Positions 132-63,100 of a stretch of DNA of 64,000 nt are shown in pieces. The position numbers were made by a program, and so were the translations under genes. The stretch covers positions 57,474,001-57,538,000 of the forward strand of contig OX597824.1 of the NCBI GenBank assembly GCA_951406725.2, given 5' to 3'. The stretch's first letter is position 1. Every line of letters starts with the position of its first letter. The notes beneath the pieces are model-generated. The model saw only the letters and a program-made list of their open reading frames with translations. It was not told where the DNA came from and searched no databases. The stretch is from Octopus vulgaris (taxonomy: Eukaryota).

Positions 132-620
132 ACCTTTCTACTGACCATTTCTCTACGCACATATGAAGAAACACACAACTACACAAAAGACCATCACTCC
201 TGTTACCATGCTACTGAAATCTTCCTACAACATTAACAGATACAAAGTTCACTCACACATACACATACACACAACCAACATCACACATACACATGCTATA
301 GTACACACTTGCGCGCACGCACATAGCCACACATACACACAGATACCTCATTCTCTTACACTCTTCTGTATTAGAAAGAACTTTTTCTTCACCCATTCCC
401 TTCCGGCCATTTCAAAATATAACCACATGTGGATCGTTGGTGACTTTTTGCCTCCGGCTTCCTTTTCTCATGCACTTTCCTCTGTCTTCTGTTTCTGAAG
501 AAAAGCTTTGCTCGAAACGTAAAACTACCTTTCTTTCCTTCCCTGAGCGTTTGCTAATACTTTGCATGTACTACGTCCTTGTGTTGTTGTTTTTCACCGT
601 TTTTCTTTTGGATTAAATAT
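130..620 (+). mobile_element. Short Penelope-derived, hammerhead-bearing repeat ending in (TA)n
   Basis: Shares the block ctgaNga-agagc..gctc-gaaacgt..ttcctgagcgt..taatact..cgtcct..ttggatt with 29235-29430 and 35600-35870. Confidence 0.7.
491..525 (+). ncRNA. Minimal type I hammerhead ribozyme motif (stem II mismatch)
   Basis: gttt-CTGAAGA-a-aagc-ttt-gctc-GAAAC-GTA-aaac; stem I gttt/aaac. Confidence 0.7.
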
Positions 621-782
621 ATATATGTATATACACAGAGAGAGAGAGAGAGAGAGAGAGAGGGAGAGAGAGAGAGAGAGAGAGAGAGAGAAAGAGAAAG
701 AGATAGATAGAGAGAGAGAAATATATTTTCCGTATAGAATACAATTCGTAGTGCTCAAGAAGTTTAAACTTGAGCAGGTAGT

Positions 783-1271
783 GGAGTAAATGTGAGGATA
801 AGCAAGTTACACAAGACAATATAAAAAAAGATATTAAGTGGATTTAATATAAACATGTATATTTGTTTACACAGAATAGAAATGATATCAGGAATTAAAG
901 GGATTGAATAAGAGTATTACGAGTCCAACAGCTGTTTCTGGAGCTTGGAGGTCCACAATGATTGTAAATTGGTTCCATCATCGGATAAGACCAATCTCCG
1001 TCTTCAGGGAAGAGTTGTTACAGTTGAGGTCATGACAGGAGTTTAAAGCTTTAAACTCCTTTCTGTCATGATCTCAAAAATTTACCATCATTTTGGACCT
1101 CCAAGCCCCAGAAACAGCTGTTGGACTCGTAAAATTCTTATTCAAACCCTTTAATTCCTGATATCATTTCTATTCTGTGTAAGTCGGACCCTTTTATCTG
1201 TAAATATATGTATATTTTTTGTATTAAATGCATTTAGTATTGTGTAATTTGCTTATCCTTACATTTAATCC
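783..1271. repeat. Fold-back element with inverted arms ~783-970 and ~1078-1271, Penelope pLTR-like
   Basis: acacagaatagaaatgatatcaggaattaaaggg in the left arm is mirrored by ccctttaattcctgatatcatttctattctgtgt in the right arm. Confidence 0.85.
924..1010 (-). ncRNA. Type I hammerhead motif with long stem II
   Basis: tcc-CTGAAGA-cggag-attggt...accaat...ctcca-GAAAC-agct-GTT-gga; stem I tcc/gga and a palindromic stem III loop. Confidence 0.65.
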
Positions 1272-1399
1272 TATATCTATCTATATATCTGTCTGTCTGT
1301 CTGTCTGTCTGTCTGTCTGTCTGTCTGTCTGTCTGTCTGTCTGTCTGTCTGCTTGCCTGTCTGTTTATCTATCTATCTATATATATATTACTACAAAAT

Positions 1400-2370
1400 T
1401 GTAAACTGAGTGCTATGCTTTTGTGAAGATGTCGATTAGTCTCTCTTTCAACAACATTGTACTCCATGGGATTTAAAGCTGGCGAGTTTGGAAACTAGAA
1501 GTTTAGTGTTACGTGGTTGTAGAGATGGGCTTTGCGAGAAGATGGTGAAGCACGTATAGCCTTCCACTGCGTACTTCATTGACCAAAGGGTTTAGCAACT
1601 GTCTCTAGCACCTTACCCTATCCAGCAGCATTAATTCTAAGACCTTGTGTAAGGATGCAAGACAGCATGACGTGACCTTCATTACCAGTCACAACTAAAA
1701 CCATCATAAGTAGCTGGAAGCTTAGTATGCATCACTCCGGAGATATCAAAAAGATCTGCCCATAATCATCTGTTATTTATTCTATTAGACTTGTTCGAAG
1801 TTTTTCTCATCAAAAAAGAACCAAAGCATGCCATGTTCGTAGCGGCTTTTTACGAGGTTAAATAACTGCATGGTGCAGGTCAAGGGATTTTCCTGCATCT
1901 TTGCAAGACATGAATTATTCTCTCCTAATTACATACGATTTGTATCGAATGTCTTCGTGCTCCCCACATTTGATAGTCCACTCCGAAACCTGAAGTTCTT
2001 TGGAGATGGCCTGCATTAATTTTCCAGGATTATCATTGTTTTGAAATTATTAGATGAATTGCGACGTCTTTATAATGTCCGGTCGTTTACAATGTTCTTG
2101 TTTTCTTTTTGATACAGTCGTAACGTTCTCCCCAGTGGCTTCCGTTTGTACCCGAACTTTGTGTATAAGGGATCTTGCAACATTTTGTTGGAAATTTTAA
2201 AATCGCTATGTCCCGTACATACGGCAACAATGGGTGCATTTTTTTTCATTTTCTTGTGTTGGCATTTTATCTTCCATAGATGACTAAAAGAAATGAAAGA
2301 CTTTTAATTAGTTTGAAGAGAGCGATATACTGATAACTGAGTGTCCTCAATTATTCCTCCCATCCTGTAT
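1400..2370 (-). mobile_element. Degenerate Tc1/mariner-type transposase relic
   Basis: Minus strand near 1465-1495 encodes PNSPALNPME (SPDLNP motif). The element ends ...tcctccatcctgta, a TIR-like end with TA. Confidence 0.55.
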
Positions 2371-60500: not shown

Positions 60501-60577
60501 GAATAATAATAATAATAATAATAATAATAATAATAATAATAATAATAATAATAATAATAATAATAATAATAATAATA

Positions 60578-61106
60578 AACGCCCTGATGCAGTACCAGTC
60601 AGTGGCTCTCATGTCTTCTCATCTTAACTAGTTGGAAGTGTTATCATGTATGTGTTTTGACTTGGTATAAAATTTGGGCTACAGCAAATATTCTGCTTAA
60701 TACTGCAGATTTGCTTATCAGTTGTTTGGCCTTAATCAGTTGAGCATGTCCCCTTGTGACTGACGATATGTGCATCGCTGATCACGAGCAGAGGTAATGG
60801 GGGAACATCATAGCCATGTGTTGATTGGTATTTAGTAGGGTTTGAATAATTCACTCTCAGAAACAAATCTTATTCATGGAACTTTTGAGCGTGATAGGCT
60901 ACTTGACCTGAAGAAAATTCTAACTGGGTCTCATCTGCAAAGTCATGCGCTGTTTATCTTGATATGAGATCACTATGTTGCGCACATATGGTTGTGATGC
61001 ATGTGCCTGGGGTATCCTTATCAGACAGGTAGTCATGATGGGTATATTGAGCTTCATATATTTGTACTACAGTGTCACTTTGATGGCATGCACTGCTCTC
61101 TCACTC
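60578..61106 (+). mobile_element. ~560-bp element, copy 4, (AAT)n on both sides
   Basis: Reverse complement of 37576-38137 with a small internal deletion. Confidence 0.9.
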
Positions 61107-61259
61107 AAAAATAATAATAATAATAATAATAATAATAATAATAATAATAATAATAATAATAATAATAATAATAATAATAATAATAATAATAATAATAATA
61201 ATAATAATAATAATAACAATAACAACAACAACAATAATAATAATAATTATAGACAATAC

Positions 61260-63100
61260 AAAGGGCGCGATGCGATTGCAAAAGGTATTTTATTGGTTGA
61301 ACAATATTTCGACAGCTAGCGTGTCTTCGTCGAGTTCAAAATGAAAAGTGATAAAAATTCAAAATTATAGAAATTCAATTCTAAAATATGAACGAGAGCA
61401 ACCAGCGTCCCCACGTTGATGGAATGACACCATCAGTCTTCAAATTACAAGTTTACAACTAGCAAAAAGAAAAAGAAAGAAAAAAGAAAAGGAAAGAAAA
61501 AAGAAAAGGAAAAAAGATGAAGAATATTTAATCAAACAGTTTTGTGTAAATATGATGAAATTCTCCTGTCATTTTATTCATTCCTATAGAGCGTGATGTT
61601 AATAACCCGAAAACATATTTCTTCTCATGCATTTTGAGGACTGATTCAGGATATTTTCTGAGAATATGCACTTTCAAGTCTTTTTCAAAATTGCAGCCGT
61701 TTGATGGAAAATGTTCGGCAAGTTCTGTCGAACTACTGTTATTGTGCCTGACATCGAATCTGTACCCATTGAATCTTTTGCTTAAGTGTTCTGTTGTACA
61801 ACCAACATAAATCAAGTTGCGTTTGGCGCATTCTACTACGTACACCAAATGGGAATATCTACACGTCCCATTTCTGCTATGATTCCTGATGGAATTCATT
61901 TGACTTATGTTGTTGCACCATGAATAGGGTTACCTCTCCTGTAGCTATTTTTCAAGGTACGGTGTGCAGAAACTCTTATGTTAGTTTTATTGGAGTCATA
62001 AGTAGAGGTTCATAATTCTCTTATATTTTTATTCCGTCTAAAGACTACTATAGGCAGCTGAGGAAATATTTGTCTGAAACGAGCATATTTCCCCGCAACA
62101 TACTGGTAACTGTCATGTGGCACTTGAAATGCCAGCGAAATTTCGGTGCCAGTTAATCACTAAAGGAATTCTGTCAGATATTTTACTTTGCTAAAGTTAT
62201 GCGTGAAAGTTTGACTTTCGTTACTAAACTTAACTATTTCATTTGCTATTTCTTTTAATCGTGATTCACTGTCATCGCGTTTGACATAATGGGGTACAAA
62301 AGCATTTGCATGTTTCTAGTAATCCTCTATGTCAGTAAAAATCCGTTTGAGCCTAAAACATTGAGATGTGGATGATCGGAGCGGCGATGGAGGCAAATGT
62401 GATGGGCTTGCAAAATAATTCTGTCATTATTCTACCTCCAGAAAACTTAACTTTTGTGTCCAAAAACTAGACGTAAATTTTATGTTGGACTTACAGACAT
62501 TGATTTAGCATAACAATCACAGAAATGCAAGAAGTCAATTAAACTATCTTGTGAACCTTCCCAGACAAAAAGACGTCATCAATGAACCATAACCATGTAG
62601 GGATTTGAATGCCTTCAGTAACTGTGTCTCGAAATTCGCCAGGAAGACATCAGCGAAATTAACTGCCATGGCGATACCCATGGCGCAAACCCTCGTCTGG
62701 TGGTAAAGTTTTTGTCCAAACTTCATGGTAAACCCACTCGACGCACCACGAAATCTCTGCGGGGATGGTAAGAACCCCGACAGAATAAACCTAATACGAC
62801 ATACTGCAGAAAGTTCTCCGGCTCCAACCTTGCTTCATCGGCCGCAAACCCGGGTGCCGTCGCCTGTAATAGTCTTCAGAGAAAATTTGTGGCTGGGTGT
62901 CTTTCTACTCCCTGTCGCAAAACGATCAAGTTCTTATATTCAGGATGCTTTTGTCTTTGTGTCTAAAATGAACAACTTTTTAAAGCACCGAAGTCGTGTT
63001 GAAAACTGATTTTTGGTAACCCTTATATCCAAATAGTGACCATGATGAAGGAGTAGAAGCTTGCATGAATGCCTTCGGAAAACGGTGAAACAAAAGTATT
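61260..63100 (-). mobile_element. Degenerate Penelope-like element (RT, GIY-YIG, 3' hammerhead variant)
   Basis: YHQTRVCAMG..FADVFL; TCRYSHLVYVVEC..IYVGCTT..RFNGYR; hammerhead variant at 61297-61339. Confidence 0.85.
61297..61339 (-). ncRNA. Hammerhead-like variant (TCGACGA / GAAAT-ATT)
   Basis: ttgaac-TCGACGA-a-gaca-cgctagc-tgtc-GAAAT-ATT-gttcaa; perfect 6-bp stem I and 4-bp stem II. Confidence 0.6.

Follow-up and report, generated by a model that had tools for sequence, protein, structure and literature searches.

Hammerhead motifs and Penelope-like element relics in the window

The 64,000-nt stretch of the Octopus vulgaris genome analysed here (contig OX597824.1, positions 57,474,001 to 57,538,000; hereafter the window, in which positions are counted from the first letter) has a GC content of 35%, includes about 14% of simple repeats and contains hammerhead ribozyme motifs scattered among relics of Penelope-like elements (PLEs). 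Twelve of the motifs were listed in a sequence-only reading, which gave their low ends and assigned them to the minimal type I hammerheads of the PLE type; all twelve are present and the assignment is correct. Three further hammerheads (cores at 27185 on the minus strand and at 27307 and 27661 on the plus strand) were absent from that list and belong to a retrozyme-like insertion. It is highly probable that the window represents microsatellite-rich DNA that has received repeated insertions of PLEs belonging to at least three clades, leaving mostly decayed hammerhead ends, together with one non-autonomous retrozyme. The scan of 18 of the 183 open reading frames (ORFs) revealed only transposon domains or sub-threshold matches, and no host gene or exon was identified among them. 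Motifs are designated below by their core positions and numbered as in PMC7151607.

PLE relics were located by homology at 15953–16462, 19302–19937, 32642–33459, 42577–43040, 44266–44574, 45953–47378, 61531–62753 and 62806–63175. Four of the relics are followed in the sense direction by a listed hammerhead (18572, 19128, 41695 and 61333), which lies 174 to approximately 2100 nt past the endonuclease. A fifth site tied to a GIY-YIG relic, 15704, is a copy in an inverted arm. Thus, the earlier count of five motifs associated with GIY-YIG relics stands, except that none of them lies inside a GIY-YIG ORF and that 15704 is upstream of its relic and antisense to it.

The 5′-truncated element of the Hydra clade at 15515–18764 (+) has inverted terminal arms of about 480 nt that are 99% complementary over 355 nt. 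Its GIY-YIG-type endonuclease ORF (15962–16486, +) contains the CxCx5C linker together with CxxC and CxH motifs that surround the conserved residues E and N, and the CCHH motif is absent. An (AAT)n microsatellite (16080–16146) has expanded in frame between the halves of the GIY-YIG motif in this otherwise open ORF. The hammerhead at 18569–18632 (core 18572, +), located 2.1 kb 3′ of the endonuclease, possesses an exact core, a 6-nt palindrome and a 3-bp stem I and is, judging by its sequence, the best preserved PLE hammerhead copy. The opposite arm carries the hammerhead at 15644–15707 (core 15704, −) with a C3A change. The second Hydra-clade endonuclease relic (42577–43181, −) has the CxCx5C linker and a frameshift falling at the CxxC/CxH region. 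The hammerhead at 41605–41698 (core 41695, −), about 880 nt 3′ of it, includes an exact core, a U-U followed by a 12-bp stem II, a 69-nt domain II and a 3-bp stem I. A defining feature of the Hydra clade was found in both relics (15515–18764 and 41605–43181) and in the homologues P0001 and P0002, the latter showing a weak match to PF01541. The reverse transcriptase (RT) is absent from both copies, and the search for longer homologues of the 15989–16483 endonuclease yielded none among 1812 candidates.

The two relics resemble the Hydra-clade PLEs described by Craig et al. (2021, PMC8557442), for which a CxCx5C linker and a preference for (TA)n are reported, in the CxCx5C, CxxC and CxH motifs, in the (TA)n context and in stem II, whose base is U-U or G-C; the U-U of 41695 is a common feature of this clade (PMC8557442). 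The two-strand arrangement of 15704 and 18572 corresponds to that of Penelope-13_HM, described as typical, in which hammerheads occur on both strands because of an inverted, 5′-truncated copy (PMC8557442). Unlike in the Hydra-clade rows listed in that source, the hammerheads of these two copies lie 0.9–2.1 kb 3′ of the endonuclease stop, domain II is longer and the RT has been lost. A hammerhead is also tabulated for Hydra-1 of Octopus bimaculoides (File S2, PMC8557442), and the hammerhead sequences found here differ from it.

The broken RT-thumb/endonuclease relic at 19302–19937 (−), which is 80% identical to a hypothetical protein of Octopus vulgaris, reads as Penelope/Poseidon-like by its motifs, as the cysteine linker is absent and there is a weak cross-match to the endonuclease at 16151–16339; Pfam gave no GIY-YIG match for seven of its homologues. 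The minimal hammerhead at 19087–19133 (core 19128, −), 174 nt 3′ of it, has a broken 15.2-16.2 pair (C-U). The relic at 61528–62753 (−) comprises a broken RT followed by GIY-YIG (PF01541, E 1.2e-4, at the cut-off), and in its homologues GIY-YIG is C-terminal, behind RVT_1. The minimal hammerhead at 61297–61339 (core 61333, −), 195 nt 3′ of the GIY-YIG ORF, has two core changes and a 6-bp stem I. The relics at 32.6, 46.0 and 61.5 kb read as Neptune-like from motifs rather than from a tree. Pfam searches with five broken PLE stretches gave nothing relevant.

Several further traces of PLEs accompany these relics. The RT-endonuclease relics at 45953–47378 (+) and 32642–33459 (−) have lost their 3′ ends before any hammerhead. 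A third endonuclease relic of the Hydra type (44266–44574, +) lies between inverted arms in the region 43540–45470, where a decayed hammerhead with two core changes and a 5-bp stem II (45412, +) is accompanied by a remnant in the left arm. The head-to-head palindromes 5149–5751 and 4562–4996 hold decayed hammerhead 3′ halves on both strands, with GAAA boxes near 5697 (+) and 5339 (−), both with a Hydra-style stem III, in the former and near 4917 (+) and 4640 (−) in the latter.

Four of the twelve motifs form a superfamily, designated A, and align with the same stems: 491–525 (core 495, +; CG as the 2-nt palindrome, an additional A following position 9, stem II mismatched at its base as A-C), 29292–29326 (core 29296, +; exact core, second stem I pair mismatched as U-C), 35746–35780 (core 35750, +; U4C) and 48510–48543 (core 48540, −; A6U). 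A half copy at 47554–47653 (−), retaining the hammerhead 3′ half only, aligns with them as well. The motif is the best-kept part of the superfamily, with 80–91% pairwise identity against 35–76% upstream and 57–82% downstream (six pairs). Since each of the four copies differs in its defect, their majority sequence restores a minimal hammerhead that is unbroken and has an exact core. A sequence model of the superfamily found no matches beyond its own five source copies. The 32642–33459 relic is pyrimidine-rich, like the region upstream of the superfamily A motifs, and by this composition it may be the parent type.

The remaining three motifs are solo hammerheads. The first, at 924–1010 (core 1007, −), has a 62-nt domain II, a 6-nt palindrome, a C-A at the base of stem II and a 3-bp stem I, and sits in the head-to-head palindrome 783–1271, whose opposite arm retains the 3′ half only (1111–1122). 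An alternative core at 984 (−) was dropped in favour of 1007, which gives a palindromic stem III. The motif at 7854–7916 (core 7860, +) has a 6-bp stem I and a Hydra-style stem III with three pairs around one A, the same as in Penelope-3_HM (File S2, PMC8557442); from the sequence, the base of its stem II is probably disrupted by a small insertion. The motif at 47951–48033 (core 48027, −) combines an exact core and a 6-bp stem I with A-C mismatches in stems II and III. In the window, no protein-coding relic linked to superfamily A, 1007, 7860 or 48027 was found.

Because four sites share superfamily A, and 15704 and 18572 share one inverted repeat, the twelve sites are grouped by sequence into eight lineages: superfamily A, the 15704/18572 pair, 1007, 7860, 19128, 41695, 48027 and 61333. 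The proposal that many independent families have seeded the motifs was sound as to several families, to which the retrozyme-like one is added, and overstated as to their number. The stems, reported as unrelated in sequence, are the same throughout superfamily A, and 15704 and 18572 lie in complementary arms.

The retrozyme-like insertion at 26980–27913

The insertion at 26980–27913 (+) is located in (TA)n and consists of an inverted 254-nt copy (26980–27233) and two tandem copies (27234–27587 and 27588–27913) of 354 and 326 nt. The unit of 354–359 nt is non-coding, has a GC content of 45%, and the last direct copy extends 48 nt further 3′ than the inverted one. All three units contain a hammerhead with canonical helix sizes, in which U3 replaces C3. 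The hammerhead of the inverted copy (27147–27191, core 27185, −) includes a 6-bp stem I, a 4-bp stem II, a 6-nt loop 2, a palindromic stem III and GUC. In the first (27301–27345, core 27307, +) and second (27655–27699, core 27661, +) tandem copies the predicted cuts fall after 27339 and 27693, that is, 354 nt apart. The geometry of these hammerheads (helices of 6/4/2 bp, nothing inserted behind position 9) is the canonical metazoan one (PMC4209133) but for U3, and it is unlike that of the neighbouring PLE motifs. An internal loop lies beyond the 6-bp stem I.

The cut-to-cut 354-nt monomer was predicted to be strongly self-paired, with −110.8 kcal/mol as a circle (z −4.7; none of 100 shuffles was equally stable) and a z of −4.87 as a linear molecule. 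For the tandem pair, the swapped double hammerhead reached −228.8 kcal/mol as compared with −231.4 for the unconstrained fold and −219.1 for two monomeric active folds; hence, it lies 2.6 kcal/mol above the best fold and 9.7 below the two monomeric ones. The insertion is the sole place in the window with two well-kept same-strand copies at close range.

Of the 24 sequencing runs listed for 27234–27913, 20 contain part of this stretch, and none is given as RNA. Four of the 24 (three organism labels) were examined, two of which may be RNA; runs with small shares outside these four were not used. In the four runs examined, 54, 25, 1434 and 516 contigs matched the unit, the summed contig depths not being equated with copy number, and the head-to-tail joint of the unit was found in three of the four. 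The core and stem III are free of substitutions in 27613–27754 (0 of 18 listed). Among the 40 of 78 substitutions listed for the unit, position 3, the rest of the core and stem III are unaffected, and all four substitutions in stems I and II keep the pairing when taken singly. Related copies have other stem III palindromes, CCGG in one contig and CCUGGG in three and four contigs.

The size and GC content of the unit fall within the limits used for retrozymes (150–450 nt, GC below 50%). As in the non-LTR (long terminal repeat) retrozymes of coral, mussel and axolotl (PMC7229834, 10.64898/2026.07.22.740005), the tandem unit is non-coding, has a type I hammerhead in each copy, is self-paired and multi-copy and co-occurs with PLEs; the mussel retrozymes of 350–390 bp are reported to form circles (PMC7229834). 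Unlike the animal retrozymes presented in PMC7229834, all three copies of the window have U3-G8, and the insertion in (TA)n includes an inverted copy and a 48-nt extension. This one-sided extension resembles the 30–40-bp tail of PLEs (PMC8557442). On sequence grounds, 26980–27913 fits a non-LTR retrozyme with a PLE-type insertion footprint, and it is the window's best candidate for activity. In the literature searched, no report of a cephalopod retrozyme and no description of a PLE-type insertion footprint for retrozymes was found; the supplements of PMC7229834 and 10.64898/2026.07.22.740005 were outside the search, and the supplementary list of the former may name some cephalopod retrozymes. 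For the giant squid genome, 235 hammerhead 1 matches are given in PMC6962438.

The 48-nt tail (27868–27913) is among the most contig-stacked parts of the unit in all four runs, and with several contigs it is the sole part in common. The tail has a weak 31-nt match (81%, E 0.026) at 31801–31831 and may be common to a helper or sister family. A MITE-like (miniature inverted-repeat transposable element) near-perfect hairpin of 303 nt (27950–28252, 93%), flanked by TA and having no hammerhead, adjoins the insertion.

An explanation of the unit as stacked short non-coding PLE 3′ ends (pseudo-long terminal repeats, pLTRs) or a DNA-level satellite, with a dead U3 hammerhead, seems rather unlikely. 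The inverted copy, the partial tandem and the one-sided extension are themselves features of PLE insertions, none of the contig pieces listed spans the whole unit, and eight of nine genomic Xenopus retrozyme dimers were reported as uncleaved (10.64898/2026.07.22.740005). At the same time, such an origin is at variance with the canonical geometry of the hammerheads next to PLE motifs of another kind, with the strong self-pairing, and with the conservation of the stems and the palindrome across copies. The unit gave no match to the PLE proteins tried, and a natural U3-G8 core is listed among functional variants in PMC7151607.

Some observations also weigh against the retrozyme being functional. 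U3-G8 may lower the cleavage rate. The head-to-tail joint was found as well in two large runs of unrecorded kind, and since these are probably DNA, the joint is no proof of RNA circles. In the outer stems of the unit, five of ten substitutions break a pair singly. The variants are unphased, and two of the four changes in stems I and II fall in one pair, which they would break jointly; besides, the inspection covered 40 of the 78 substitutions. On balance, the chances that the retrozyme-like family is active appear to be even. The fuller proposition, namely, an active cephalopod non-LTR retrozyme with family-wide U3-G8, abundant circular RNA of 354–359 nt and all elements of the PLE footprint, from the inverted 5′ copy and the partial tandem to the 48-nt tail and the (TA)n target, is tentative and slightly less probable.

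Integrity, partners and controls

The motifs were evaluated with a descriptor consisting of the core, an A permitted but not required behind position 9, stems I and II with 4 bp apiece, a palindromic stem III and UH. By this descriptor none of the twelve sites is flawless. At least three contiguous pairs of stem I are present in 11 of 12 sites; at least three of the first four pairs of stem II are likewise kept in 11 and all four in five. Stem III is self-complementary in ten sites and broken in 19128 and 48027. An unpaired nucleotide between 9 and 10.1 occurs in six. The CUGANGA core attributed to all the motifs is exact in 8/12, the exceptions being 15704 (C3A), 35750 (U4C), 48540 (A6U) and 61333 (two changes). 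C at core position 4 recurs in the unrelated or distant copies 35750 (+), 61333 (−) and 45412 (+), twice with U at position 3, and could reflect decay or a tolerated natural variant. Judging from the sequences, ten of the twelve copies probably have at least one lesion. Of the four copies regarded as intact in the sequence-only reading, 18572 and 41695 fit the published Hydra-clade patterns apart from their 3-bp stems I, and 29296 and 48027 are damaged by mismatches adjoining the junction; that reading overstated how many copies are intact.

The motifs share with the minimal hammerheads of pLTRs in PLEs (Cervera & De la Pena 2014, PMC4209133) the type I topology with an absent or palindromic helix III and a short helix I, the extra nucleotide between 9 and 10.1, and the occurrence as many unrelated families, mostly solo, with pairs 100–700 bp apart on opposite strands. 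Unlike in that set, several domain II inserts of the window measure 39–69 nt, and most copies are damaged and would fail a strict descriptor, so that the local count is not comparable with genome-wide counts; Octopus vulgaris is not among its species, as far as the accessible part of the source goes.

For single minimal hammerheads, no detectable cleavage was reported (PMC4209133), and it is probably as dimers that the hammerheads of PLEs act on tandem precursors, slowly in vitro (PMC4209133, PMC6765202). A same-family copy on the same strand closer than 6.4 kb was found for none of the twelve sites, the nearest pair being 29296 and 35750; at 48540, the half copy located 0.9 kb away has no core, and the strands of 15704 and 18572 are opposite. 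According to the nearest-neighbour model, the strand-swapped homodimer is less stable than the best co-fold by 0.6–2.8 kcal/mol for 15704, 18572 and 41695, by 7.8–21.8 kcal/mol for 1007, 48027 and 7860, and by 16.5–27.1 kcal/mol for the six copies whose palindrome measures 2 nt.

The suggestion that the motifs could cut host introns is thus unsupported, because they need a partner and none of the twelve has a close one on the same strand, and no host exon was identified among the 18 ORFs scanned. It is very unlikely that some solo copies, as protein-helped monomers or as trans-dimers formed with abundant same-family transcripts, are active in vivo and cut host pre-mRNA. Such activity would be favoured by the exact cores of 18572 and 41695, whose modelled swapped homodimers come within 0.6 and 2.8 kcal/mol of the best co-fold, and by the anole PLE hammerhead, which is protein-assisted: it cleaved only with protein, no RNA-seq ends were seen at its site and it was dispensable for insertion in vitro (PMC11167929). 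Approximately 44% of Xenopus tropicalis retrozymes overlap introns (10.64898/2026.07.22.740005). Against it stand the failure of single minimal motifs to cleave detectably in PMC4209133, the cost of the swapped dimer for the six 2-nt-palindrome copies and the lack of a host gene in the ORFs scanned, and a read-through transcript of 15515–18764 would pair its 480-nt arms, burying the motif.

At up to zero, one and two defects, the descriptor found 0, 7 and 17 matches in the window, as compared with means of 0, 0.04 and 0.83 (maxima 0, 1 and 4) in 200 block-wise dinucleotide shuffles, so the motif frequency is not reproduced by shuffling. The reversed window gave no matches at any of the three levels, 60 decoy cores, out of 142 that are possible, gave in the real sequence means of 0.02, 0.13 and 0.92 (maxima 1, 1 and 4), and three decoy GAAA boxes gave at most two matches. 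Counted by lineage, the excess is 10 against 0.8–0.9 in the controls. The 17 matches include ten of the twelve listed sites, 7860 and 15704 remaining outside, the three retrozyme copies and four others. Three of the latter (24259 on the plus strand, 52123 and 53054 on the minus strand) are copies of one match with a broken core, lying in antisense orientation where the 3′ end is found in an RVT_1/zf-RVT family of long interspersed nuclear elements (LINEs). These and 37949 (−) were rejected, about four of the 17 matches being probably due to chance. The view that DNA rich in repeats and hairpins has produced most of the motifs by chance is hardly tenable and largely refuted, since, despite the lack of Rfam support, a descriptor tuned post hoc and the four probable chance matches, none of the controls exceeded four matches, the excess persists by lineage, and the locations 3′ of GIY-YIG relics and the clade-specific details agree with the published tables (PMC8557442).

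The RVT_1 ORFs at 24270–26153 (−) and 54955–57345 (−) are long (627 and 796 aa) and represent two families of LINEs, of which many pieces also occur at 20.0–24.6, 36.7–38.1, 51.9–54.4 and 59.4–61.1 kb. A DDE_3-like transposase relic is situated at 63203–63598.

Origin of the motifs and significance

It seems that most of the motifs are left-behind PLE 3′ ends. PLEs have a type I hammerhead near the 3′ end and insert mostly as 5′-truncated pieces, often with an inverted second copy; as the hammerhead is near that end, it would be the part most often left behind. Five of the twelve sites are seen to be such remains, and the seven solo sites presumably have the same origin. According to the published model, strand exchange between two copies of a tandem precursor creates the active junction, an exchange needed because the PLE stem III is only a 2–8-nt palindrome. 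The preference of PLEs for microsatellites may have concentrated the copies in the window: a simple repeat occurs within 150 nt 3′ at 7 of 11 sites against 30% of random positions (P ~0.02, the threshold being chosen afterwards), which agrees with the (TA)n preference of Hydra-clade PLEs. After insertion the copies would decay, and solo copies, having no partner, are probably inert in host transcripts.

Some results do not favour this origin. PLE protein relics in the expected position are lacking at seven of the twelve sites, and therefore the PLE origin of the seven solo sites rests on their architecture. In superfamily A, no compensatory change was found in eight pairs, the stems being invariant or damaged; each of the other families is represented in the window by one or two copies. 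The descriptor was composed after the sites were known. Rfam returned no hammerhead at the gathering cut-off; at E up to 1, none was among the best 150 of 152 matches, nor among the 15 matches over 27080–27800, the matches listed being hairpin and microsatellite noise. The secondary-structure energies exclude tertiary contacts.

The insertion at 26980–27913 would be a non-autonomous member of the PLE system, a non-LTR retrozyme. From its structure and copy arrangement, which are directly visible in the DNA, we infer cleavage, circles and a helper in the following way: a read-through transcript of the plus strand could fold into the double hammerhead, and cuts after 27339 and 27693 would free the self-paired 354-nt monomer, which may circularise and then be reinserted by a PLE RT-endonuclease.

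PLE hammerheads are known by the thousands in animal genomes, one Octopus example being already tabulated. The window adds further copies of known kinds and an overlooked compact retrozyme candidate. As it contains 15 motifs in 64 kb, counting damaged copies, the number of PLE-derived hammerheads in genomes of this sort is probably much underestimated by strict descriptors. The PLE-type footprint of 26980–27913 bears on the question of which machinery moves animal retrozymes. If the proposition is true, the full footprint would be direct mechanistic evidence that retrozymes are inserted by the RT-endonuclease of a PLE, and the helper family could be recognised from the tail.

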